Source: Amphibalanus amphitrite | Taxonomy: Eukaryota | Reading direction: 5' to 3' | Length of the DNA stretch: 64,000 nt | Assembly (NCBI RefSeq): GCF_019059575.1 | Contig: NW_024881729.1 | Location: 544,406 to 608,405 of the forward strand | Part shown: positions 3,552 to 63,837 of the stretch, piece after piece | Numbering within the stretch: the stretch's first letter is position 1 | How the letters are laid out: each line of letters starts with the position of its first letter | Notes under the pieces: generated by a model | Told to the model about the DNA's origin: nothing | Databases searched by the model: none | Seen by the model: the letters and a program-made list of their open reading frames with translations, nothing else | Position numbers and translations under genes: made by a program

Positions 3552-6500
3552 GTATAAGGCGGAGTTGAAACGGCTCCAGACTGCCTTTGATGACGCCACC
3601 AACTTACAACGAAAGACAATGAAGAAGAAGCGCAGCCCAAAGCCGGAGTCTGATAACTCAAAGCCTTCGGGGCCCGGCCGCAAACCAGGCGAGAAGCGAC
3701 CAAAGCACTCGCATCCTCCAAGCGGCGGCTCAGAGCGGAGCTCTGCGCCTCCAGCCGCCCATCAGACCGCTCATCAGACGACCCGGCCTACCAGCCCGAA
3801 ACACCGGCTTCAGAACGGTGGGACCCCGCCGGCGGCTGCGGCGGCGACCTCTACGCCCGCTGCCACTCCTCTCGCCGCGCCGGCCAGGGACCCTGCTGCA
3901 GCCAGTCCTGCCGTCACCTCTGCCTCGAGCGCCGTGCCCTCTGCGCCGGCGACCGCGGCGCCACCTCCTGCTGCAGCCGTACCTCCGGTGGAAACTCCGG
4001 CGGTGACGTCAGGGTTTCAGCTGGAGCTGGAGAAACTGCGGCAGGGGATGAGCAGTTCGGCTCAGCGTTCTCATGAGCAGCGGCAGCAGGAGGCGGCTGC
4101 CGCTGCTAATGCCTCCGCCGCCGCTGCCGCTGCTAACGCCTCCTCTGCCGCTTCCGCCGCTACTCCCGCTGATCGGTCGCCACCGCGCCGCGCCAGTCTC
4201 AGTGGCGCTGGCGGACCGCCGCTGCTGCCGTCTCCAGAGCAGCTGCGGGCTGCCGAGCCTCGCGCGCCGGCCGCGCCGCAGCAGCCGGCAGCCGACCGTC
4301 ACCACAGCCCCAAGAAGATCCATCTGTACGGCAGGTCTCAGAGCCAGCCGACGGCTGCGGCCGGGGTCGAGCCGGCGGACGACGAGGCTGCGACAGCAGC
4401 CGCTGCTGCCACCGCTGCAGCGGAGGCAGAGAAGAAGAAACGCTTCCGGGAGATCAACGAAGCCGAGATGAACGACGCGGTGGCTTCCATCATGGGTGGC
4501 AGCGACGCAGACTTCTCGCTGTGTGTGAGCCCCGAGCCGACGGTGAGCCGGCGACGCACCAGCTCAGAGTCCGGCACTCCGACCACGGCTGCGGCCGACC
4601 TGTCTGTGCGCCGGCCGAGCACGGACAGCCTTACGGAGCGGCTGGCTGCGCTGGACGGCGCGGGGGACGGCCGTGTGTCAGCACCCTGGGAGGAGGAGGT
4701 GATAGGGGGACGGACTGTCGGGGGCGACCGCGGCGGCTCGGTGATCAGCAGAGGCGGCGGGGAGGACAGTGGTGTCAGGGACGAGGCGCCCGAGCGGGCA
4801 CGGACAGCCAGTGCGGACAGTGTGGGCGCGGCCGCGATGGATGCAATCCTCAGCGGTCGGCAGGCGAGCACGGACAGTATCACAAACAGTTTCTTCTCGC
4901 CGCTGACGGACGGGGAGCGGCGCCCCAGTGGTGAGTGCTGGTCGGAGCCGGCCGAGACCGCCAGAGCCGGCCGGCGCTCCAGTCTGACGGACGGACGGGG
5001 CGGCGGAGACTCCCGCCGGCCGCCACCGGCGCCAGAGCCGCCCGCCGAGCCGCCGCCCCCGCCCCCGCCCCCGCCTCAGCCGCCGCCCGAGCCGCCCGCC
5101 GACCAGGGTCTGGACCTGTCCGGCGGCGGCGGCCAGCTAAACGAGGAGCTCGACTGTGTGATCAAGGACCTGATGAGCTTCAACCAGCTGAAGGAGGCGG
5201 CCTCTCCGCCGGCACGCAGCAGCATCCTTCAGCTGGCGGCGCGCCAGGCGGACATTTTCTCACCGGAGGGTACGTCAGCAGGCTCGCCGTTCAGTGCCAA
5301 CCATTCGTCACCGTTCTCGCCGGAGATGCAACCAGTGTCACCGGCGCGATCTGTGGCCACCAATCTGCAGAGTGGGTTCGCGCCGTCCCGCTCGGCGGTT
5401 CTGGCGGCGTTTGAGGGCGGCTCGGCGCCACAGCAGCCGACCCGTCAGCAGCCGCAGCAGCAGCAGCCGGCTGTGTCCCGCTCAGCCTTCAGTCCGGACC
5501 CGTACGGCGGCGGACACCGGCCGGGTGGTGGTGGCGCCCGCGCAGAGCCGGCGCCCCGCTCTAGGATCGAGCAGGCTGAGGGTCTGATGGCGCACTTTGC
5601 GCCGCGCGCGGACCCGGCGCCGCCGCCGCCCCCCAACCCGCCATCACCGGCTTCGCCACACCACCGCCAGCCGGTGTTCGCGCAGCACGGCGTGGGCCGC
5701 GCGGACCCCCAGCTGACGGGTGGGTTCGGCTCGAGACATGAGCAGGCGGTCAGCCAACAAAGCGGGCGGCGGGACTCCACATTCAGCCAGCCCAGCCCCA
5801 GGCAAGAACCGCATTTCAACCAGCCCAGTCCGAGGCAAGAACCTCATTTCAGCCAGCCGAGCCCGCGACAAGAACCGCATTTCAGTCAGCCGAGCCCACG
5901 GCAGGAGACACACTTCAGCCAGCCCAGTGCACGGCAGGAGTCGCATTTTAGCCAGCCCAGTGCTCGCCAAGAGACGCACTTCAGCCATCGTAGTCCGCGG
6001 CAAGAGCCGCAGCTCATTCAGAGGAGTCCGCGGCAAGAACCTCATGCGGGTCATCCGAGTCCACGGCAGGAGTCCTACATGAACCAGCCCAGTCCCCGCC
6101 AGGATCCCCACTTGAATCACCCGAGTCCCCGGCAAGATCATCATTTGAACCATCCCAGTCCCCGTCAGGATTCCCATATGAATCATCCTAGTCCCCGCCA
6201 GGACCATCATTTGAATCATCCTAGTCCTCGCCAAGATCATCATTTGAATCACCCCAGCCCTCGGCAGGATTCCCATTTGAATCACTCCAGTCCTCGGCAG
6301 GAGTCCCACCTTTCTCACCAGGGACTCCGCCAGGATCCCCATCTCACCCACCAGAGCTCCCGTCAGGACTCCCACCTGCTCTCTCACCAGAGTCCCCGTC
6401 AGGAGAGTCGCCTTTCCCGCTCGGACTCCCAGCTCTCACATGGCTCTCCACGGCAGGAGCCGCCACTGGGACTCAGCTCTCGGCGGGACTCCTTCGGTCA

Positions 6501-10785: not shown

Positions 10786-10984
10786 CTTGGCGCGTTTTTT
10801 GATGGTCATGCTGCCGTCGAGCCGGACGAAGCAGTAGCTGCGCATCTGGCAGAGGGTCTCGAACAGGTCGAGTGTCTGCGTGTAGTTGGAGACGAGCACC
10901 ACCTTGTCGCTGGTCTGCGTCTTCACCAGGGCCAGCAGGTAGTCCAGCACCGACACCTTGCCGGAGAGCTCCGGACGGACGCGT
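10786..10984 (-). CDS. RAD54L: RAD54-like, exon 10 ([44 protein letters not shown])
   Basis: Helicase C-terminal domain, motif IV region. CACTAG acceptor; AAG|GTGGGC donor. Confidence 0.85.
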
Positions 10985-11526
10985 CTAGTGGACACAGGGA
11001 GGGGGTATTAGACACATCAGAAGACACAGACACCCTGCCGGACAACTCCGGACGGACTCGCCTGGAGGACAGGGGCGGGTAGATATTAGAGGACAAAGAC
11101 ACCCTGCCGGACAGGTCCGGACGGACTCTCCTGGAGGACAGGGGCGGGTAGATATTGACACAGACACCCAGCTGCCGGACAGCTCCGGACGGACTCGTCT
11201 GGCGGACAGGCGGGTGCGGACTGCGGAATTTCAGATACGAGTGGACGCGGACACGCCTGGTGGACACAGGAGGGGAGAATGATATACTGTGGTGGTGTTT
11301 GCAGGTTAGTCATTCAGTTGCTTCACGGGATGCCCCTACTTTGTAACCTATACGGACCTTGCTAGTTTCCGACAGCCTCTAATATCGCGAGTCCGTCTGG
11401 GCAGGACTGTCATCCCTGACAAACTCACGGAGTATCTGTCTGAGTTCGTCTTGACTCTCTAACTCACTCTGTCGAGTGTCCGTCTGACTGTCTGAGTTAG
11501 CTCTGCCTCCCGAGTCCCCGACTCAC

Positions 11527-16834: not shown

Positions 16835-17117
16835 CAGGGCTGCGGAGTCGGAGTCGGAGTCGGAGTCGGTCGGAGTCGACAGTTGTGACCAGAGTCGGAG
16901 TCGGAGTCGGAGTCGATTTTAGAAACCCGAGCCGGAGTCGGAGTCACCGAAAATCTGTCGACTCCGCAGCCCTGCTAGGTCTGCAGAGTCGGAGTTGGGA
17001 GTTGGAGTCGGTCGGAGTTGACAATTCTGCCCGGAGTCGGAGTCGGAGTCGGAGCTGGTTTTTGAAAGCCGGAGTCGGAGTCGGAGTCGCCGAAAATCCA
17101 TCGACTCCGCAGCCCTG
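16835..17117. mobile_element. Two adjacent palindromic MITE-like units (16835-16974 and 16981-17117) of the same family, (GGAGTC)n arrays between CAGGGCTGCGGAGTCG TIRs
   Basis: Unit 1 starts CAGGGCTGCGGAGTCGGAGTCGG and ends CGACTCCGCAGCCCTG. Unit 2 is a near-duplicate. Confidence 0.55.
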
Positions 17118-18093: not shown

Positions 18094-18539
18094 TACGTGC
18101 AGACCATCACAGAAACGTCAATTCTTCAGCAACCGGCTATAATTTCAAGATAGTTTCTTCACAAAATGTAGAACAACGTTGAAGCTACCCGCCAGGCACG
18201 AAACAATAGCCCTAACCTCTTCGGTTAGTTTAGGAAAGCGTCTTGAAAATAATCAAGATATTGATTCATCACGGCGGCTAATCCCGGCGAGAATCAATAT
18301 TTTGATTCCGCAAACAGCTGGCTAATCATTATTTTGATTCTGAAATCAGCTGGTTTATCAATATATTGATTCTGCGAACTGACTTTCTGCAGACGTACTT
18401 CACTCTTCAAATTGACTTATGGAATGTTTCTTGTGTGCAAATAATGCAAATTCAATAAATTCATGAAGATATTATCAGCACAGGATCGTGTAATTTTTTC
18501 TAGACCTTATTCCCACGGTAGACCAGGGATTTTCAGCAC

Positions 18540-21779: not shown

Positions 21780-24700
21780 TCGGTAAAGCTGGCGTCACCG
21801 TCGGCGGTAGGTAGGTAGGTTATGTTGTGGGTTCAGTAGGTGGAACTATGGTCATGAGTACCCAAATATAGGAACGTTCCCATTTTTGGGAACGGAGTTC
21901 CCAAATATGGGAACGGGCGTTCCCATTTATGAGAACGGAAGTTAATTTTTCGGCCGTTCGCCCACTAAAACTCATTAGTGCATCACGTCTCAAAAAAGTG
22001 CACGCTAATTTAAGTATCTACTAAGTCGATTCCAGGACAAATCTTCGTATGGCATTTCTTCGTCGCGCAATTCTTCGTCCGCATTTCTTCGTCCGCAAAT
22101 CTTCGTCGGCGCATTTATTCGTGTCGCATAACTTCGTCTCGCATTTCTTAGTAAGCGCAAATATTCGTAGCGCATTTTTTCGTATCCGCATTTCTTCGTA
22201 CGCGCATTTCTTCGTCAAGCATTTTTTCGTCCACGCATTTCTTCGTCTACGCAAATCTTCGTCCGCATTTCTTCGTCCACGCAAATCTTCGTCTGCGCAT
22301 ATCTTCGTCCGCAAATCTTCGTCCCCGCAAATCTTCGTCCGCAAATCTTCGTCCACATTTTTTCGTCCACGCATTTCTTCGTCTACGCAAATCTTCGTCC
22401 GCATTTCTTCGTCCACGCAAATCTTCGTCCCGGCAAATCTTCGTCCGCAAATCTTCGTCCGCAAAACTTCGTCCGCAAATCTTCGTCTGCAAATCTTCGT
22501 CCGCATTTTTCGTCCACGCATTTCTTCGTCCACGCAAATCTTCGTCCGCAAATCTTTGTCTGCGCATATTTTCGTCCGCAAACCTTTGTCTCCGCTATCT
22601 TCGTCTCCGCAAACATTCGTCCACAAATGTGGTTCAATAAAACCATGAAGAAATATCAGACCATCAAGTGATTGACGAATTTAATGCATGGAATGGATGA
22701 TCGAAACTTTTGAAGTCAGGTAGATGAGGTCTGTCAGGTGAAGCTATTGTATTTGGGAGCCGAGAATTGAAACATTCCATATCATTTGTGTCCCGGACAT
22801 TCTTTTTTCGCGGTCGATGAATGACAATACAATCTCTTGTACCCTCGCCGGCATAGGCGGCGGAACGGGGAGGGCACCGGGGCACCGTTCCCCTCTTTAA
22901 TTTGGCCTTTTAACAGTAGCCCTATGGGCGTTGCATGGAAAGAATGGGACTAAAAGTCGGCAGTGCCAAGCCCCCCCCCCCCCCTAATTGAATGTGTTCC
23001 GCCGCTACTGCTCGCCGGACCTATTTGTTTTCTACATATACGCCGGCCGAGGGGGGGGGGGCGGGCACGACCCCCCCCCCCTTCCCCCCATCGCCGTTTC
23101 GCCACTGGTGGAGCTAGCGCGTCGCGGAAAAAAACGAGCGTGTGCGCCGTTACGAGACGCAGAGATTAATACCCGATTTTAAGGCCTTCTAGGTCAGGGG
23201 TCGGCTTACGGCCCGCGGGCCGGATCCGGCCAGGAGGGTGACGGTTCGATCCGGCCCGCGACCATCTGACGTCCGGCCCGCGGCTGGTATCATCGACTTA
23301 CATCGTGTTCCGGCCCGCGGTTCCTTCAGAAATCGACTCCGATATAAAAGTGACTTAAATGTGCTTTGGCACAATAGTTCTTCCTTCGCACACTTCATGA
23401 GTTTATAAACACCATTTGCGGGTGTTTTTGTCTAATTCTACTTCTAGACAAAACTTGCGCGGGCCGGACGTCAGATGGTCGCGGGCCGGATCCAACCGTC
23501 ACCCTCCTGGCCGGATCCGGCCCGCGGGCTGTAAGCCGACCCCTGACCTAGAAGGCCTTAAAATCGGGTATTAACCTCTGCGTCTCGTAACGGCGCACAC
23601 GCTCGTTTTTTCCGCGACGCGCTAGCTCCACCAGTGGCGAAACGGCGATGGGGGGGGGGGGGGTCGTACCCGCCCCCCTCGGCCGGCGTATATGTAGAAA
23701 ACAAATAGGTCCGGCGAGCAGTAGCGGCGGAACACATTCAATTAGGGGGGGGGGGGGCACGGCACTGCCGACTTTTAGTCCCATTCTTTCCATGCAACGC
23801 CCATAGGGCTACTGTTAAAAGGCCAAAATTAAAGAGGGGAACGGTGCCCCGGTGCCCTCCCCGTTCCGCCGCCTATGCCGGCGAGGGTACAAGAGATTGT
23901 ATTGTCATTCATCGACCGCGAAAAAAGAATGTCCGGGACACATGATATGGAATGTTTCAATTCTCGGCTCCCAAATACAATAGCTTCACCGGACAGACCC
24001 CATCTACCTGACTTCAAAAGTTTCGATCATCCATTCCATGCATTAAATTCGTCAATCACTTGATGGTCTGATATTTCTTCATGGTTTTATTGAACCACAT
24101 TTGTGGACGAATGTTTGCGGAGACGAAGATAGCGGAGACAAAGGTTTGCGGACGAAAATATGCGCAGACAAAGATTTGCGGACGAAGATTTGCGTGGACG
24201 AAGAAATGCGTGGACGAAAAATGCGGACGAAGATTTGCGGACGAAGATTTGCGGACGAAGTTTGGCGGACGAAGATTTGCGGACGAAGATTTGCCGGGAC
24301 GAAGATTTGCTGGACGAAGAAATGCGGACGAAGATTTGCGTAGACGAAGAAATGCGTGGACGAAAAAATGCGGACGAAGATTTGCGGACGAAGATTTGCG
24401 GGGACGAAGATTTGCGGACGAAGATATGCGCAGACGAAGATTTGCGTGGACGAAGAAATGCGGACGAAGATTTGCGTAGACGAAGAAATGCGTGGACGAA
24501 AAAATGCTTGACGAAGAAATGCGCGTACGAAGAAATGCGGATACGAAAAAATGCGCTACGAATATTTGCGCTTACGAAGAAATGCGAGACGAAGTTATGC
24601 GACACGAATAAATGCGCCGACGAAGATTTGCGGACGAAGAAATGCGGACGAGGAATTGCGCGACGAAGAATTGCCATACGAAGATTTGTCCGGTTACGTA

Positions 24701-26600
24701 CTAAGTCTCTATAAAATTATCTTTAATCTGACCGTTGCACAAGGAAATTGACCGTCGAATGATATTTTTAATGATTTTTTGAAATGACGGAATGGTGAAA
24801 ACATGGGTTATACTACATTTAACTTGCAATTTTAAGGAAAATGAAGCGTTTTTTACATTTTGAGGTCAAGTACAATAATTTTCGCCTGGTTATGAAGTTT
24901 CATACTAGCGACACCAGATGCTGACATATGCAAGCGAACACGCGGACAGTCCCGAGGTAATATTGTTGACTTTTGGTGTCGGGGCGCACGACCGCGTGGA
25001 ACGTCAGTGATTTTACCGAACTACTGTTGTAAACTCGGTTTCAGTGGTTTAAAATTATTCAGCTGTATTTTATCATCCCGGAAAGACATATTTTATTTGG
25101 ATGCTAGCTGTTAAAGGGACCCTCCCACCTTTAAAAAAGTTTATGAATTGGCATGAAAGTGATGTCGCTCGGTTCAGAAAGAGCGAAAACGAATATCTAC
25201 CAAATTTCACCGAAAAATATTCACCGGTTTTGAAGATATTAGACTTTTACTTTTGTTTACTTTTTGGGATCTCCGCTGTTCCTAGCGACTTTATTTAAAA
25301 GTGCGGCATTTGTTGCGCGCAACGCAGCATATACCACCGCGTGCTACAAAACGTTTTAGTCAAACATTTAACGGACGTTCGAAAGCCTGATGACGTCATC
25401 AGATTTAAGTGCCTATACCAATACATTGTGGCACTTATTTGCACAGATGTCAAAATCAAACTCAAATTTCTTTGCGATGAAGTAATTGCTGGAGAAACGG
25501 TTTTCACGGCACTGATTTTCAAAGAACGTCCATCAAGATGGCTATCTCAACTCAAATCTAATGTTAAGGTGGGACAGTCCCTTTAAGCGTTGTTTTATAA
25601 GGAGCGTCATGAGCGTGATTTTTGTCTTCCGTGTTTCTAAGCACGATCGTTTTGGGGGAATTTCTCTTATATAGGTCGCTTTGTGTGGCTTATTTATAAT
25701 TTTTATGCTGATCTCGATCATTCCTCGTGCCCATCCTACCAGGCCTTTTGCCACTTACACCCATCAAGAAAGGAAAAAACTAGATTTTCATTGGGACTAG
25801 GTGTTTTGAGGGTGTAACATATTCAGCGTTCCCATTTTTGGATACTTCCTTGTGCTCGTCAACTATCGGTGATAAACAGACAGGTGCTTGACATGTCTCC
25901 ACCCTCGGCGCGGACGGTGGATATAGGTATGGAAGACCTTGTTGAACATCGCTGAGCGTTGTGAACTACGTAATCCTGCAGAGGGGGGCGTGCCCGCTGC
26001 GAGATCGACGGGAATAAAAGCGCAGAAGACCGGGCGTAACATGCGACGGTCTTGCCGGAAAGGTCATCTGATGATTGTTGCGTTAACAATAATTTGCGGC
26101 GTTGGACGTGATGCTTGTTAATGAAAAGAGCCCCTGAAAGGCGTCGGTGAAATCGTTCCCAATTTTGGGTACGCCGTTCCCATAATAAGGAACGCTTGCA
26201 GCGCCAGTGTACGAGAGCGTTCCCAAATTTGGGCTCGCGGCCCGGATGATGGACTGCTTTAGAAATAGGGGAACGATTTGAAACTACGATGGGCCTTACA
26301 ATATCAAACTCTTTCCCAACAATATTGGGACAAATATCAGGCGGTTCACGATCGTTTTTTTTTTTTTTTGGACGTCATTTAACGGTTCTTTTTCTTGTTT
26401 TAAATAATGCCTACATGGCGTTCCCATATTTGGGTTTATCGTTCCCAAACATGGGAACGAAAATGCGTTCCCGAAAATGGGTACGCTTGACCATAGTTCC
26501 GCCTACTGGGTTTGTAGGTTGTAGGCTGGTTGGTTCAAAGTGTGTAGGCTGGTAGGTTGTAGGTAAGTAGGTAAGGCTAGGTCAGGTTAGATTATGTGTT
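21780..26600. mobile_element. Candidate larger element enclosing the foldback. Long inverted termini (about 21795-21960 versus 26400-26560) are built from palindromic GTTCCCAnnnnTGGGAAC motifs and carry (GTAGGT)n at the outer ends
   Basis: Left GGGTTCAGTAGGTGGAACTATGGTCATGAGTACCCAAATATAGGAACGTTCCCATTTTTGGGAACG.. matches the reverse complement of right ..CGTTCCCAAACATGGGAACG..GACCATAGTTCCGCCTACTGGGTTTG. More motif copies lie at 25831-25850 and 26140-26235. Confidence 0.4.
22038..24692. mobile_element. Foldback-type element: a 2.65-kb near-perfect palindrome whose arms begin with tandem arrays (about 600 bp) of a degenerate 14-18-bp unit (CTTCGTCCGCAAAT-like), followed by inner unique sequence and a second, smaller palindrome around the centre (about 23190-23560)
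   Basis: The left arm 22038-23390 is the reverse complement of the right arm 23410-24692. The track ORFs 22021..22626 and 24087..24677, and their antisense partners, are simply translations of the arrays. Confidence 0.7.
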
Positions 26601-34837: not shown

Positions 34838-34959
34838 AGGCCCCAATTGTCTGACGATGTTCCCTCTCCACCACAGGCGATCGTTCTACAAAAATACTGG
34901 CGCCGCTGGTTGGCCCGTGTTACTCCCCTGTCTGACGATATTCACGCTCTCCACCACAG

Positions 34960-35079
34960 GCGATTCTTCTACAGAAGTACTGGCGCCGCTGGCTGGCCCG
35001 TCGCCGGGTACAGCGGATGGCCAGGGAGCGGGATGTCGTGCTCCAGTGGATTGTGGACGACGCAGAACGGCGCAAACAG
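34960..35079 (+). CDS. IQUB-like, IQ-motif exon (AILLQKYWRRWLARRRVQRMARERDVVLQWIVDDAERRKQ)
   Basis: CCACAG acceptor; CAG|GTCAGA donor, phase 0. It matches the IQ consensus and is the last member of a tandem array of degenerate copies. Confidence 0.6.
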
Positions 35080-37387: not shown

Positions 37388-37796
37388 GTCAGCGGAGGAT
37401 TACTGACGGGTCAGTGGTACTCTAGTATATGTGAGAGAGGACAGCCTGCAGTCGAAGTACGGGGAGCGTGCGTGGGGTTTGGTCACTGGCAAGTCTTTCC
37501 TCGCTACATACGGTGTGAGAAAGGTGTACGACTTTCGCTACCCATGTGTGTGCGAGGCCTACGTGTGACTTATGATCTGGGTATGGGACAGGTTAATGAG
37601 TCTGACACATGTATTTGTTTCTGTGACAGGAGTCTGACTTCCGCCACCTGGTGCTGTCGCTGTGGGGCGGCCAGTCCTGTCTGACATACCACCTCTGTCT
37701 GTGTGTTACAGGAGTCTGACTTCCGTCACCTGGTGCTGTCGCTGTGGGGCGGTCAGTCCTGTCTGACATACCACCTCTGTCTTTCATGTGTTACAG

Positions 37797-37982
37797 GAGT
37801 CTGATTTCCGTCACCTGGTGCTGTCGCTGTGGGGCGGCCAGTCCTGCCTGAGCGCCGATCCGGACCTCTATGAGCTGCTGCTCTGCCGCTGGGACGTGGA
37901 ACAGCCCTGGACGCCTTGGAACTGCGTCCTGCTCACCAGAGACGAGACCGAGGCGCACTACAAGCTCGGAAAGCCGCAGCAG
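37797..37982 (+). CDS. IQUB-like, exon (ESDFRHLVLSLWGGQSCLSADPDLYELLLCRWDVEQPWTPWNCVLLTRDETEAHYKLGKPQQ)
   Basis: TGTTACAG acceptor; CAG|GTCAGT donor. Two degenerate tandem copies of the acceptor plus exon start lie immediately upstream, at 37621-37796. Confidence 0.6.
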
Positions 37983-56400: not shown

Positions 56401-57739
56401 GTATTATGTGCACTGCCAGATTCTGGAGTTTGCTGTTTGGTTTTCTATTGGTGACCCCTGGTCAACAATACCTACTGTTGGAATTGGATTAAATATAGTC
56501 AAATACAGAAAAGGTACTGTCAGTTGAGTGTGGCATTGGCTAGGTCTATTGTTAGCTGTCTTACCTATAGTCATACTATTACCACCATAAGCTGCCAACA
56601 CCTACTGTTTATAGTATACACACCCACCAGATGCCTCCTAAGCGTAGCTCATCTCATAACCAGCAACTCCATCCTGCTGGCCCATCTGGTGAGTCTCAGT
56701 CAGGGACCACTGGTACCAATGCTTGGAATATACCACGTGGGTAAGTTTATGATCGCATTCCTCACGGGCTTCCTGCACCTCCAGCTGCTTGATTTCACTT
56801 ATGGGCATCACCTTCACATGGCTGCAGACATGGGTGCTCTATGGTATAGGCTTGGTAGGACCCGAGCCGTACCAAATATTTCACAATTTTAACCTTATCC
56901 CCAGGGTGCTGCATGGTGAGAATGGCTTTTGTATCCTAAAGTTAACCATTAGAGCCCTATCCTAAAATTTCATCAATAAAGTGACGCCCGTGGCTGCAGA
57001 GCTGCTGCGATGCAGATAACTTTTGAGCACAGTGGCTTCAGTCATTTCATGTGCAGGGTCGTCATAAGGGACCGGTAGTCTGTTACATCGGGGAATCACG
57101 GCGAAAGCCTTTCCATCTTTTGGTCTAATAATAATTTCTACATTACACTCCAGACGCTTTGGTGGGACGCTGTTCACGTTCACGTTGAGTGCTCTGCCCC
57201 TCGGCGTGGGGAGATGCAACCGAGTTTGGCTTCCTGGGCAATATGGTTCGCACCTCGCAGCTTGATCGCTCTGCACTTTGGATCCGTGAACTGCCTAGTT
57301 AGTCCTGTATGCCATGCCACACGATTTTATTCGGTACGGACTTTGCTTTATCTTTGCGAGGGACGGTTGTGTGTGTCTGTAAGTGGGCTCATTGGTGTGT
57401 GTGTGGATGAATGTTTGCCATTTTTAAGAAGTGTGCTTTGCATTTATTTTAGCATGCATCTTTTATTCACGGTATGATTCTCAGATGAAAACGATTTTTT
57501 TTTTCGATGGTGCTGCACGACGAACTCACCCTTGTCAATTAATGTTGCGACTCTACTGTCCAGTGTCCATGCACATGTGTGTGTGTTTTTTTAACTTATG
57601 TTGCGTAGCTTTAGCTGTAAACTTCTTTCCTTATTGGCCAATGAATCACCCAGTATAATTGAGTTCATTTTTATTGGAAATGGGTGACAACCCATGCGTG
57701 TGATTTCATCTCACCTGTTTTGTTTGCAGGCTTCTAAGA

Positions 57740-57799
57740 ATGCCGCGAGGAAGACCGAGACAGTCTCAGAATGGGACCAGAGCCACGCAGGATGATGAC
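57740..57799 (+). CDS. NSMCE3: NSE3/MAGE-domain protein, exon 1 (MPRGRPRQSQNGTRATQDDD)
   Basis: ATG at 57740; GAC|GTGAGT donor. Confidence 0.6.
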
Positions 57800-58232
57800 G
57801 TGAGTGACGGTCGTCCCCAATACTGACTCACCGGGCATCCAACTGATTATCCGCTGACGACAGCTGGTGCGACAGTCTAATACTGACGGTCTTGTCCGTC
57901 CCTATCCCGTCTGTAACGGTCTATGTTATCTATATTATGGACGATGCCTCGGTCCCAATGGCCCAGGCACTGGGTGACCCAAGAGTGCGGCTATCGTTTC
58001 CCGTGTATAACCTGTGAAGGTAAATGATCCCGCTCCCTGTCAATAACCCCTATGTTCAAATCCGTTTCCCGTCTGTGACGCTTATGTACGCTTCTCGTTC
58101 CCCATACCTATGTAACGCTTTTGTGTGATTTCCGTTCCCCCACATATAACACCTATGTGTCACTCCCGTTCCCCGCCTGATAACCCGTTCACCGCCTGTA
58201 ACCCGTCTGTGCGACTCCCTCTCCGCCGCCAG

Positions 58233-58472
58233 GACGGGCCGCTGTCGCAGTCACTCTCGCAGTCGCAGTCGCAGACCCAGCGGCGCTCTCAGCGGCGCCT
58301 GTCTCCGGTCGAGGAGGAGCGGCTGGCCGCCCGCGTGGTGCGCTACGTGCTGGCGGCGCACGGCCGCGGCGAGCCGCTGCGCCGAGAGAAGGTGCGCCGC
58401 CTGGCGCTGGAGCCGCAGCACGGCGGCTACGTGAACCAGGTGCTGCAGGCGGCCGACGTCAAACTGAGAGAC
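58233..58472 (+). CDS. NSMCE3: NSMCE3-like, exon 2 (..RRLSPVEEERLAARVVRYVLAAHGRGEPLRREKVRRLALEPQHGGYVNQVLQAADVKLRD)
   Basis: CGCCAG acceptor and GTGAGT donor. This is the start of the MAGE homology domain. Confidence 0.75.
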
Positions 58473-58565
58473 GTGAGTGGGGCGGCGTGTGTCCTCTCTG
58501 GGCCGACCGGGTAGGGAACTGAGCTAACTGGGGGGAGCGGATGAGGCGTAATAGATTGGGATTTA

Positions 58566-58608
58566 TGCCTGTGTGTCATCCCTTTCTCTCTCTCTCTCTC
58601 TCCCCCCC

Positions 58609-58681
<73 letters not shown>

Positions 58682-58688
58682 CCCCTCC

Positions 58689-58719
<31 letters not shown>

Positions 58720-58740
58720 CTCCCTTCGGCCCTCCCCACT
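58566..58740. repeat. (TC)n/(CT)n microsatellite of about 170 bp in NSMCE3 intron 2
   Basis: Visible run of ctctctct with occasional c or t insertions. Confidence 0.95.
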
Positions 58741-58908
58741 TCGCTTTCTCACTGTAGGCACATGTTGGTACGCTTCCCGTTGCTACCAGTGTTCGTTCTC
58801 CCTAACTAAATGTAAGTCTTATCCGACATCACTGGACCCTTCGCTGGTTTATCCAGCTGAGCTACCCCTCCCTCCCCGCCGTGCTAACTCTAACATCGTC
58901 ATCCCCAG

Positions 58909-59086
58909 GTGTTTGGTATGTCGCTGGAGGTGTTGCCCAACAAGCGGGACCTGCTGCTAGTTAACCAGCTCCCCGTGGTGGAAAATGCGCCGCCACTGCT
59001 CGCAGAGTCCGAGCTTCAGAAGCACGGCCTGCTCGTCGCCATACTGGCGCTCATCTTCATGAGTGGGGACGCCGGCGTGGATGAGG
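58909..59086 (+). CDS. NSMCE3: NSMCE3-like, exon 3 (VFGMSLEVLPNKRDLLLVNQLPVVENAPPLLAESELQKHGLLVAILALIFMSGDAGVDE)
   Basis: Core of the MAGE homology domain (the VFG..L.EV.. and LL..L.LI.M.G. pattern). CCCCAG acceptor; G|GTACGT donor. Confidence 0.8.
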
Positions 59087-59510
59087 GTACGTAGATAAAT
59101 CAGAGCGACTGCGGCGGACGGACGTACGCGGTACGTGGCATTGTTATCTGTCAGATGCGGGTTATTTTTGCTGTTAGAATTGCGTATCACAATAGAATCA
59201 ATGATCAAAGAATAAAGAGTATCATTGTCCTGTATGGTGGCCCTGTGTAACTTAGCGTCTCCAGGTATCAGGATCTGTGGCAACGGGTATAGACAGAACC
59301 CCTGCGGTTTTGAATCCGACATGTTCGGAGCGGTGATGAGCCACAGAAACCGATGCGCTCCCCGCAGCTGTGGTAGAGCGACATGACGACCGGTTCCGTC
59401 AGTAATCTCATTAGTTTAAGTCTGAGCTCCGAGCGCTGGTGCTGCGCCGCCGTGGATCTGTATTTGTGTGACTAACGGGAGCGATTCCCCGTCCCTATTC
59501 CGCCGGGTAG

Positions 59511-59599
59511 ATACGCTGTGGAGGTTCCTGTCAAAGCTGGGCGTCCACAAGGACCATAAGCACGAGTGTTTCGGCAACGTGAGGAAACTGGTGACCGAG
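59511..59599 (+). CDS. NSMCE3: NSMCE3-like, exon 4 (DTLWRFLSKLGVHKDHKHECFGNVRKLVTE)
   Basis: GGGTAG acceptor; GAG|GTAAGT donor. Conserved MAGE block (W..L...GV.....H...G..RKL.T). Confidence 0.75.
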
Positions 59600-59963
59600 G
59601 TAAGTCAATGGGGCTGTGAGGCTAGTCAGCCTCTTCACACTACCATTAATTATGAGGCCGGTGAGAAGTGCATTAGGCTAGTCAGGAACGTATGACCGAG
59701 GTTTTTACCAGGGGTGGCGGACCGTGCTGACGAGTAATGACTGGTGTGACTGATGACTGATAAGTGACTGATATGACTGTTGTCACGGCAGCTGAACGCC
59801 TCACTGAGGTGTTACTGGAGTTCTGTCACGCCGGCTATGATCTTTCGTGTTTGACGCTGGCAGGAGTTTTGTCGCGACAGCTATAATGTGTAGTTTGTCT
59901 AACGTCGACAGGATTTCTGTCGCGCCGGCTATGATTTGACTAACTGGCTTCTGACGTCGACAG

Positions 59964-60095
59964 GAGTTTTGTCGCGCCGGCTACCTGCGTAAAGAGGAGG
60001 AGGTGGTGAAGGGTGTCACGGTGCTACGGTTCTTCTGGGGAGACGCCGCTTCTGTGGGTGTCGACGCCGTCGACCTGCTCAAGTTCGTCTGTACG
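59964..60095 (+). CDS. NSMCE3: NSMCE3-like, exon 5 (EFCRAGYLRKEEEVVKGVTVLRFFWGDAASVGVDAVDLLKFVCT)
   Basis: CGACAG acceptor; ACG|GTGAGA donor. Two degenerate tandem copies of the acceptor plus exon start lie upstream. Confidence 0.75.
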
Positions 60096-60364
60096 GTGAG
60101 ACACTCTTCGAGCTGAGTGAACGGAAATTGGGGAAGCATTCGAAAGTAATGGAAGTATGAATGGTAAGCTAACGAGTGGTGGGTTGATTTAGGAACTCTA
60201 CACAAGGGAAGTTACGTAAGCGGGACGCTTAGAGGGAGGAGTTGAGTGAGAAACTCCAGAGTCCCGAAGAGGGTGTGTATATTATCACCGATATCACTAA
60301 ATGTATTCTAGTTGCCCTGCGAGCGCCGTTGATCGTCCCGTCTCCCCCCCCCCCCTCCCCACAG

Positions 60365-60472
60365 ATCTGGGGTGACGAGGTGGAGCCAGAGCAGTGGCAG
60401 GAGCAGTATGAGCGCGCGCTGCAGCTGCAGGAGGCCCGCGAGCAGCGCGAACAGGCTCGGCAGCAGCAGTGA
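60365..60472 (+). CDS. NSMCE3: NSMCE3-like, terminal exon (IWGDEVEPEQWQEQYERALQLQEAREQREQARQQQ*)
   Basis: CCCACAG acceptor; TGA at 60470-60472. The six exons total 807 nt (268 aa). Confidence 0.7.
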   Translation: MWGDEVEPEQWQEQYERALQLQEAREQREQARQQQ

Positions 60473-61714
60473 CGGCCCGCGGTCCGTGCCACGGGCGCCC
60501 CGCGGCTCAGAGTGTGAGAGGAGCCTGCAGTACAAACTGGTAAGCTGTGGAAGGTAACGCGGGTAGCGCCGCGAGGTGGAGAGTGTTCGACCCGGGACTT
60601 TGTGCTGGGAGCGCGGACGGTGCTTGAAGTTCGGAATCAGTTGGCGAAGAGGTGCTTCAGACCTTCTGTCTAAGCCCAACGTCATGAGATTATTGTGTGA
60701 GATTTGATACCGAGGTGGTTCTGATGTACCGATGACAGGCTTGTCAAAGTAGCGCCTCATACTGAACAATTACGTTGCATTCGATGTCATTTTCATAACT
60801 GCCACCCGACTATCCCCGGGGTTTTCGCTTGTGCCTGGATTTGTCCACCATATGGACCACACTCACTCATCACATGTTGCCCCGGCTGCGTCCGTGATCA
60901 ACGCACCCGATTCGGACTTTCGGACGGAAAAGCCATAGCTCGTCCGGGCGCTCTAGCGGCTTCGTCCTCGCTTGTACCTGAGCTTTCACGGCATCGAGTG
61001 TCTGTGCACGGTGTGTTGATTGTGCTTTGATTGTTCGCGAAGATACAACGTTGTTCCTTATCTTATGTGATGAACTGGAAGAATCGTGGATTTTCTGGGG
61101 CACACACCCGAACCACACATTAAGCGGAATGTATACTGTATGTATTTTATCACAGTCAATATCGGCTCCGACGGGGCCCGCCGCGCCTCGGTGCCCGATC
61201 TGCGGGACCTCCAGGGTCCGGCGCCCAGCCGAGGAGTCACCCTCAGGGACCAGCTCCTGATCTGATGTACCCTGTTACAGTGCACAACAAAAACCACCGT
61301 GCCAATCCATACCGAACAACAGTTGTCACAAGCACCCGCAGTCGACACGTCAACCGTGCTACCACAACACGTATCGCAGTTCGCACAGAAATAACAATCA
61401 TCTCGCAAGCTTACATAAAATATTGAGCACAACAGCATCAAAATAGCCCGGTGATAACGCTCTCATTACAGCTCGTCATTAGGACACAGAGTTCACAGAG
61501 GACAGTTCCTGACAATACCATGTCGTATGACCGTCCGCCGATGCCCCCAGGGCCCGGCGGATTTACACAGATTAAAGCAGGACGACGCTCCGAGCCGGCG
61601 GGGCGACCACTGGCCCGCGCGGTCTCAGACACGCGAAAAGTACCGCAGGCCCGGGCGGGGAGCGTCGCGGGTTATCACAGCGCCAAGAGTTCAGCCAACA
61701 CCCACGGTCGGCTG

Positions 61715-62644: not shown

Positions 62645-62926
62645 CTTTTTGAGCCAGGCCTCGGCGGGCACCAGGTCGTGGTCGTCCATGGCCAGCATGC
62701 CCAGGTTGAAGTAGACCCTGTCGAGTCCGACGGCCGACGGTCGGAGCGCGATGAGCCGGTGGAGCCGCTGGTAGGCGAGCGGCCGCCGCTCCGGGGGCCC
62801 CTCCTCCTGGATAATCACCGCCGAGTTGAGCAGCGCCTGCTGGTGGTCGGGGTCGTGCTCGAGCGCTCTGTCCAGGTAGGCCTGCGCCTCAGCCTGGAGG
62901 CCCTGCTCCAGACACACCACGCCCAG
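62645..62926 (-). CDS. TMTC-like, TPR exon (LGVVCLEQGLQAEAQAYLDRALEHDPDHQQALLNSAVIIQEEG..LGMLAMDDHDLVPAEAWLKK)
   Basis: CTGTTACAG acceptor; AAG|GTGAGT donor. It is preceded, in the transcript 5' direction, by two pseudo-copies. Confidence 0.55.
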
Positions 62927-63837
62927 CTGTAACAGACGAGAGAAGAGGAGGGAGGGGTGTTAGAGCATACAACTCCAGTCCCTGGGCCTGGAGGCCCTGC
63001 TCCAGACACACCACGCCCAGCTGTAACAGAGAGGAGTAGGGGGAGGGAGGGATGTTAGAGCACGCAACTCCAGTTCCTGGGCCTGGAGACCCTGCTTCAG
63101 ACACACCACGCCCAGCTGAGGAAGGGAGAGGAGATGGTGTGTTAGACAACCAAATACTGCGGTAGTCTCACAGCGAAATGAGCCCACGAGAAGAAGCGAA
63201 GACGGAGAGGAGGATGTAATCATTACGTTTACTAATCAATCACGTTTTGTTCTGTTGCGAGCTACACAACATAGCGTCTGGCACACAGCCCGTCAGTGAA
63301 GATAAGCCCACGCCGTGTGTGCTAGGCGGCCACCCCATCTCACATCATTTTCTCGGGAATCGGATGGTCCGCAGCCCCCACACCCCGTCCCAGTCGCCAT
63401 GGCGGCCCGGGTGGTAACACGACGCCTGACGCCGTATCGCGGGCCAACAGACGTCCGGCCATCGGCCCGCACTGCACACAACAGTGTGGTAAAGGAAATA
63501 CTACCACCAGACACCGCCCAGCAACACTGAACGCCCCAGCCCCCACCGACAGTGTGTATACTGTCTACATAACCACAGCCACAACAGGCTCCAACAGCCA
63601 GAACAGGGGGAGGGGTGGGTTGGGCCCCCGGCAATGGATAGTTAAATGACACGCTGAATGACTGGCAGGCTAGCCCACTGGCTGGCTGGCTAGCTGGCTG
63701 GCTGAAATAACTAACGACTAAATGAACAACGGACTGACTCACGGAAAATGACTGCTGTAAGGGAAGAGATCGGATTATCAGTAACACCCATTGACCAATG
63801 TAGCACCGACTGGTCCCGTTCACTCACGTTATAGTAG

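Follow-up and report, generated by a model that had tools for sequence, protein, structure and literature searches.

The closest described case to the repeat array reported here is the 37-bp minisatellite in intron 7 (IVS7) of the human F7 gene, whose pseudo-sites stay silent (2006, PMC1557585). The array in intron 4 of the barnacle NSMCE3 gene is its 3' splice site mirror image, older and degenerate. Both are head-to-tail minisatellites in which the terminal unit straddles an exon-intron boundary. In both, the authentic site is accompanied by intronic pseudo-sites and the site adjoining the exon is the one used (for NSMCE3, according to the annotated model). The two differ in that F7 repeats a 5' splice site in identical units, whereas NSMCE3 repeats a 3' splice site in units that are 70–82% alike, one pseudo-site being dead. 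Copy-number polymorphism is documented for F7, whereas the NSMCE3 array is identical in two assemblies. Finally, the silence of the pseudo-sites was established experimentally in F7, whereas here it is predicted from the sequence.

Intron gain or sliding by tandem genomic duplication, the Rogers model, was treated by Hellsten et al. (2011, PMC3265369), and tandem duplication as an intron source by Lehmann et al. (2010, PMC2891723) and in a review (PMC3443670). Like the NSMCE3 array, such events are small intragenic tandem duplications of splice signals that are spliced out and leave the protein unchanged. Tandem genomic duplication was reportedly also put forward as a source of introns by Gao and Lynch in 2009. 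In the Rogers type, an exonic AG|GT proto-splice site is duplicated and a new or shifted intron results, whereas in NSMCE3 a pre-existing acceptor was duplicated, with CAG|GAG or CAG|GAT in place of AG|GT at the junctions, and the intron was lengthened by ~146 nt. Intron gain by duplication of an AG|GT proto-splice site was rejected for this locus because the donor (GAG|gtaagt, 59599/59600), which lies 200 nt upstream of the array, is not repeated and the junctions read CAG|GA.

In NAGNAG tandem acceptors, AGs 3 nt apart use a common branch site and polypyrimidine (Py) tract and give in-frame isoforms (PMC3250501). More than one AG is likewise available to a single intron in NSMCE3, but each acceptor has its own upstream signals and use of the upstream ones shifts the frame. 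A NAGNAG assignment was rejected, since the acceptors are spaced by 48–52 nt and neither the 52 nt nor the 100 nt that would be gained preserves the reading frame. Decoy 3' acceptors in introns, such as In100 of caspase-2, are single elements with demonstrated regulatory binding. The NSMCE3 decoys resemble In100 in being acceptor-like intronic sequences, putatively without productive splicing; they differ in being plain duplications of the neighbouring real site. Such arrays are unmentioned in the barnacle genome preprint.

Results

The DNA analysed (64 kb, hereafter the window) comes from the barnacle Amphibalanus amphitrite. NSMCE3 was assembled by eye as a six-exon model on the plus strand (exons 57740–57799, 58233–58472, 58909–59086, 59511–59599, 59964–60095 and 60365–60472; all introns GT-AG). 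The 268-aa translation matched annotated A. amphitrite NSMCE3 (KAF0307376.1, XP_043230432.1 and XP_043246186.1) with 100% identity and 100% coverage. A MAGE homology domain (PF01454, E = 1.6e-25) covers residues 55–220, most of the protein, in Pfam, and the protein aligns to solved NSMCE3/MAGE structures (PDB 9lwi_E, an NSMCE3 homologue, E = 2.1e-23). The original prediction had named the gene NSMCE3 and had placed the repeats where intron 4 ends and exon 5 starts; the Pfam and annotation matches confirm the name and the six-exon model confirms the place. Exon 4 (59511–59599) ends at the donor GAG|gtaagt, as shown by translation of the spliced model. Intron 4 (59600–59963) is 364 nt long and the array forms its final ~160 nt. 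Exon 5 (59964–60095, EFCRAGYLRKEEE...KFVCT) matches the annotated protein. Orthologues and PDB MAGE domains are collinear with the protein across the exon 4/5 junction (VTE|EF.RAGYL), and no insertion was found there in three related proteins (49–61% identity) or in the annotated protein. Two of these three related proteins are encoded on intronless contigs (L003 and L004), which are probably transcripts.

Four head-to-tail, in-register units were found in a direct-repeat search, with start-to-start distances of 46, 48 and 52 bp. Each unit (46–52 bp) is made of 26–32 nt of intron tail followed by 20 nt of exon 5 (GAGTTTTGTCGCGCCGGCTA). The unit boundary lies at the junction ..GGCTA|TGAT.., where microhomology is just 2 nt (TA). 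Unit A (~59803–59837, plus strand) was recognized as a member of the repeat family, in a pattern match with three mismatches and in a profile match (59803–59842). Its core is at 59814–59841, it has branch-like CTCAC/CTGAG and its pseudo exon start (59818) is dead: in the pseudo-acceptor actg|GAGTTCTGTCACGCCGGCTA the AG is mutated to TG, ahead of 20 nt of exon-5-derived sequence. Unit B (59838–59883, 46 nt, plus strand) is intact at ggcag|GAGTTTTGTCGCGACAGCTA, with a pseudo exon start at 59864, and unit C (59884–59931, 48 nt, plus strand) is intact at cgacag|GATTTCTGTCGCGCCGGCTA, with a pseudo exon start at 59912. Unit D (59932–59983, 52 nt, plus strand) carries the true 3' splice site (cgacag|GAGTTTTGTCGCGCCGGCTA, 59963|59964) and is the only one continuous with the rest of exon 5.

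The three strings quoted in the original prediction were present as written, with exon starts at 59864, 59912 and 59964, and their similarity held on alignment, far beyond chance. The 22-mer AGGAGTTTTGTCGCGCCGGCTA, searched with up to three mismatches, gave four matches in 64 kb, all inside the array; in 100 dinucleotide shuffles the expected number was 0.00. The in-register repeat is thus real, but the array had been described as a triplication, copy A having been missed; with four copies it is at least a quadruplication. The spacing, given as about 60 bp, was measured as 46, 48 and 52 bp, and the 20–30 nt of exon 5 attributed to each copy came down to 20 nt. The array was not reported by TRF, even at a score of 30, because the units are only ~70–82% alike and differ by indels. 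A candidate fifth, degenerate partial copy (TGACTGTTGTCACGGCAGCT, 59774–59793, plus strand) was the best non-member match to the four-unit profile and was not significant (E = 1.4). The array is immediately preceded by short TGACTGAT-type repeats (59737–59779, plus strand; TRF period 7/9 and direct-repeat families), to which the 5' end of each unit (TGATTTGACT) is similar.

Units B and C keep CAG|G and are pseudo-acceptors at the sequence level. Two decoy 3' splice sites had been proposed; B and C fit this description, and a third upstream copy, A, has lost its AG. Splicing to B (59864) would add 100 nt and read EFCRDSYNV followed by a stop. Splicing to C (59912) would add 52 nt, with a frameshift and a premature stop. 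The Py content is similar at B, C and the true site (9–10/17 each), and branch-site spacing was the only sequence feature found that favours D over B and C. A predicted branch site (CTAAC, 59940–59944, plus strand, from the YTNAY map) with its A at 59943 (–21) is present in unit D only, and the AG map shows an AG-free zone of 50 nt (59912–59961, plus strand) that separates the unit C AG from the true one. In B and C, the only available branch-like YTNAY has its A at –10 from the exon start. At the very place of GACTAAC in unit D, the units preceding B and C are shorter by 4–6 nt, and an extra AG (59892–3) is found directly upstream of the unit C acceptor. Because they have only the –10 branch-like motif and lack the –21 CTAAC, decoys B and C look disarmed rather than competitive, and A, B and C look progressively disarmed. 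Branch-to-AG spacing rules are used in predicting acceptor choice. In an established model, associated with AG exclusion zones (PMC1431707), the branch site comes first and then the first AG. Under this model, D is the predicted product.

The copies had been taken not to be microexons, and this stands. Only B is followed by a GT (the weak gtgtag), 24 nt away, so that its inclusion as a microexon would insert 8 residues in frame; the orthologues and the annotated protein carry no insertion. Decoy-spliced, intron-retained and microexon products were looked up in a collection of 15 billion proteins and none was found; as only exact full-length matches count in this look-up, the evidence is weak. 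The A. amphitrite NSMCE3 protein cluster has a single member.

The NSMCE3 units are quasi-palindromic (CGACAGGAKUUYUGUCG), and neighbouring units can form predicted duplexes of ~17–20 bp. A duplex between the decoy B and C acceptor regions (59856–59924, plus strand) was predicted by folding, and its energy is nearly equal to that of the C/D duplex (–33.4 and –33.0 kcal/mol, respectively). The 211-nt region folds somewhat better than shuffles (z = –2.27), and in this context the minimum free energy (MFE) structure is A/B plus C/D. In the 536-nt context, the ensemble has B and C paired and the true site freer, with an unpaired probability of ~0 at both decoy AGs vs 0.07–0.55 at the true site. 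The predicted B/C pairing was treated as a by-product of repeating a quasi-palindrome and not as a sign of function.

The array is base-for-base identical in the independent assembly GCA_009805615.1 and is therefore not an assembly artefact. No copy-number variation was found between the window and GCA_009805615.1 (two haplotypes). All four units carry TGT (Cys) at the third codon, and the orthologous codon is AAG or GTG in three related sequences (L003, L004 and an NSMCE3-like pseudogene on contig L002). As the Cys codon is in all copies and missing from the three relatives, the duplications are lineage-specific and post-date the substitution. Units A and C have TTC and the tail TATGAT in common, units B and D have TTT, and A–B aligns to C–D at an offset of 94 nt (BLAST). 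Comparison of the units suggests a history of one duplication, then duplication of the two-unit block. On L002 (6001–12100, from a related barnacle), intronless NSMCE3-like pseudogene fragments lie within a 2-kb tandem duplication and are interrupted by a non-homologous insert; the pseudogene looks like a processed copy. In one of the L002 copies, 33 nt (GCACGAGTGTTTCGGCAACGTGAAGAAGCTGGT) are tandemly duplicated immediately ahead of the position matching the exon 4/5 junction.

Local direct repeats were then surveyed across the window with TRF and with self-BLAST at offsets of 25–400, setting aside repeats of transposable elements (TEs) and satellites and two in-frame coding repeats. All unique-sequence arrays with a unit >45 nt (five, NSMCE3 included) span a 3' splice site and the start of the exon. 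In all five, only the last copy runs on into the exon, and the sequences are unrelated between arrays. None of the five spans a 5' splice site (donor), and no unique-sequence array in the window is wholly intronic. The idea that the array is a special feature of a housekeeping SMC5/6 gene was thus not sustained, as arrays of this kind are found at four other genes in the window.

A RAD54-like gene on the minus strand (Helicase_C, E = 2.9e-23) has four tandem copies (10948–11215) with a period of 68–77 that are ~81% alike. The real exon start is at 10984 and the decoys are at 11061, 11130 and 11198. The unit contains a branch-like tctaat, a Py tract and ccag|RCGAGTCCGTCCGGAG..GGTGT, and use of the three intact decoys would lengthen the mRNA by 77, 146 or 214 nt, each shifting the frame. 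An IQ-motif exon on the plus strand (IQ, E = 5.7e-5; real start 34960, decoy 34877) has one 83-bp duplicate (array 34848–35001) that comprises the acceptor and 42 nt of exon and is 88% alike. About 12 nt upstream of this array lies the 3' end of an ORF whose tail is retrotransposon-like (weak zf-RVT match, E = 0.23); an (AAC)6 run comes after it. Target-site duplication by a retrotransposon was considered for the IQ array and rejected, as both copies are on the same side of the element.

An unnamed gene (g37) on the plus strand has three copies (37622–37851; exon ESDFRHLVLSLWGGQSCLSADPDLYELLL...) with a period of 82–85 that are 93% alike. The real start is at 37797 and the decoys are at 37712 and 37630, as placed with an orthologous contig (L005). 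The unit is made of the acceptor and 55 nt of exon, and the junction microhomology GTCTGA coincides with the branch-like TCTGAC. In L005 (1–145), a metagenome contig of a related barnacle, the orthologous acceptor has a duplicate of its own, identical at 60/60 positions. Its exon-side breakpoint differs from that of the A. amphitrite array, which suggests an independent event.

A TMTC-like gene on the minus strand (TPR register; real start 62926, decoys 63020 and 63115) has three copies (62892–63133) with a period of 94–95 that are 89–91% alike. The unit contains ctctaac, a long Py tract and ttacag|CTGGGCGTGGTGTGTCTGGAGCAGGGCCTCCAGGC. Three units are present in the window vs two in the other assembly (L001 8150–8300), and orthologous metagenome contigs from other species (L006–L008) have a single acceptor and the same exon start (3/3). 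The outermost TMTC decoy would add 189 nt, in frame; all other decoys shift the frame. The annotated A. amphitrite proteins were not recovered when the g37 and TMTC exons were used in protein searches, and support for these acceptors therefore comes from contigs L005 and L006 and the Pfam register.

These younger arrays are 81–93% alike. Their decoys keep an AG and a Py tract as good as those of the real site, and most have a branch-like CTAAC, CTAAT or CTGAC upstream (by eye). A sixth case in ~70 kb was found when the other assembly was followed for a further 6.5 kb; it lies in another TMTC intron (L009 22567–22667, minus strand), ~6 kb past the end of the window. The duplicate is 66 bp long and comprises the acceptor and ~30 nt of exon (ctctctcag|ACTGGCGGTGACTTGGGAGGAC vs tttcctcag|ACTGGCGCTGGCTGGGGACGAC). 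Assuming one acceptor per 550 bp across the 64 kb, which is generous, five of five arrays spanning an acceptor gives P = 5e-5, and five out of 12 for all repeat regions gives P = 0.016.

Discussion

The NSMCE3 array is probably a silent, decaying and lineage-specific relic left by successive tandem duplications across a 3' splice site. A ~50-bp segment straddling the intron 4/exon 5 boundary would have been copied in tandem in at least two rounds, possibly by microhomology-mediated slippage or unequal exchange, as suggested by the junction GGC[TA]TGAT. The duplication would have been silent because the last acceptor, continuous with the exon body, restores the mRNA. Splicing to the 3'-most unit would thus reproduce the original mRNA with an unchanged protein, and the upstream units would have become ~146 nt of extra intron. 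The true site would be chosen through the –21 CTAAC in the 50-nt AG-free zone and through the adjoining real exon body, and nonsense-mediated decay (NMD) would clear transcripts from any leaky use of B or C. The silence of the decoys, the choice of branch site and NMD were all deduced from the sequence, and the array would have no positive function. Three observations were counted against the relic reading: the AG is kept in B and C despite 20–30% unit divergence, which could be constraint, the predicted fold is somewhat stable (z = –2.27), and the Py content of B and C is no lower than that of the true site.

Retention of CAG|G in B and C, together with the premature stops that they would give and a Py content matching the real site, would also suit regulated unproductive splicing, in which B and C are maintained as 'poison' acceptors and the NMD substrates tune NSMCE3 output. 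We consider this improbable. Copy A has already lost its AG, the –21 branch motif is absent from B and C, the duplications are lineage-specific and the copies are young, as shown by the common Cys codon. The same architecture in five unrelated genes argues for a mutational origin, and no alternative products are on record in the protein collection. The array might otherwise act as an RNA-structure device, B/C pairing hiding live decoys and freeing the true acceptor and the branch site. The B/C pairing and the buried decoy AGs of the 536-nt ensemble would agree with this, as would the z score of the 211-nt region. However, C/D pairing, which hides the true site, is equally stable and belongs to the MFE structure in the 211-nt context. 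Moreover, pairing arises automatically from a repeated quasi-palindrome, so that a device of this kind is unlikely.

It is very unlikely that the copies serve as alternative microexons or mutually exclusive exon starts adding coding variants. The 24 nt from copy B to gtgtag would encode 8 in-frame residues, but this donor is weak, C is without a nearby GT and A is without an AG; no insertion is seen in orthologues or in the annotated protein, and the product is absent from the protein collection. Chance similarity, an assembly artefact or a dispersed mobile element carrying an acceptor (Introner-like) could be invoked because TRF does not call the array. Each of these can hardly be credited: four matches were found where none was expected, the second assembly is identical, and arrays at different genes share at most 13 nt. 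A mobile element (Introner-like or SINE) was rejected as only the four local copies were recovered when the 64 kb was searched with the unit profile, and Rfam gave no match in 57000–61500 at E ≤ 1.

A mutational origin is likely for the NSMCE3 array because four other genes in the window and one further intron just outside it share its architecture with unrelated sequences, the copy number of one of them differing between assemblies. We propose tentatively that a process in this genome preferentially creates or retains 45–95-bp tandem duplications at 3' splice sites, and that the NSMCE3 array would be its oldest visible product. Hairpin-driven slippage was not supported as the cause: in 80-nt DNA folds of the five duplicated acceptors and of four non-duplicated NSMCE3 acceptors (z from –0.4 to +1.0), the duplicated acceptors were no more structured than the others. 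Reverse transcription of a lariat-3'-exon, which would make units begin at the branch A, fits the g37 junction (GTCTGA|C) and possibly that of NSMCE3 (CTGA|TA). It was not supported because, by eye, it misfits the TMTC, RAD54 and IQ arrays; the TMTC unit junction, contrary to a lariat-cDNA origin, lies ~22 nt upstream of CTCTAAC.

Taken alone, the NSMCE3 array is a case of acceptor duplication invisible to the protein and followed by decay, and it calls for caution in gene prediction. Its own interest is modest, and the recurrence of such arrays in neighbouring genes matters more. If they occur genome-wide, barnacle introns grow by acceptor duplication, which would be a concrete mechanism of intron lengthening. 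The spliceosome must then routinely pick the last of several near-identical acceptors, each with its own branch-like motif and Py tract. These arrays would form a natural allelic series for the choice among tandem 3' splice sites, a counterpart to the 5' work on F7, and could mark a 3'-splice-site-associated duplication hotspot in a hyper-polymorphic animal.

Additional observations

A (TC)68 microsatellite was found in NSMCE3 intron 2 (58585–58719), where the other assembly has (TC)63 (L009 10846–10969). Identity between GCA_009805615.1 and the window is 99.75% over 8.3 kb and then 92.5% with many indels. The drop (window 62981–63500 vs L001 8136–8645) looks like a switch to a divergent haplotype, consistent with reports of very high barnacle diversity.

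Apart from the (TC)68 run, two satellite blocks and two in-frame coding repeats, the repeats that do not lie at an exon boundary are associated with MITEs or other TEs (410–821, 16836–17117, 18292–18379 and flanking 21876 and 26509). The MITE-like elements at 16836–17117 and 410–821 have terminal inverted repeats (CAGGGCTGCGGAGTCG...CGACTCCGCAGCCCTG) and are packed with runs of the hexamers CGGAGT or CGGCTC; two tandem copies are present at 16836–17117. Two satellite blocks of ~600 bp (22038–22628 and 24099–24698) lie in opposite orientation. They are built of CTTCGTCCGCAAAT units with a period of 16/30/46 and are flanked by palindromic GTTCCCATTTATGGGAAC repeats (21876–21939 and near 26450). 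The blocks and their flanks probably make up a single large transposable element whose inverted ends are long. The two in-frame coding repeats are on the plus strand: the first (5750–6416) repeats an 11-residue unit (HFSQPSPRQEP and variants) ~20 times, and the second (4096–4162) is an Ala-rich repeat of a 9-residue unit (AAAANASAA).
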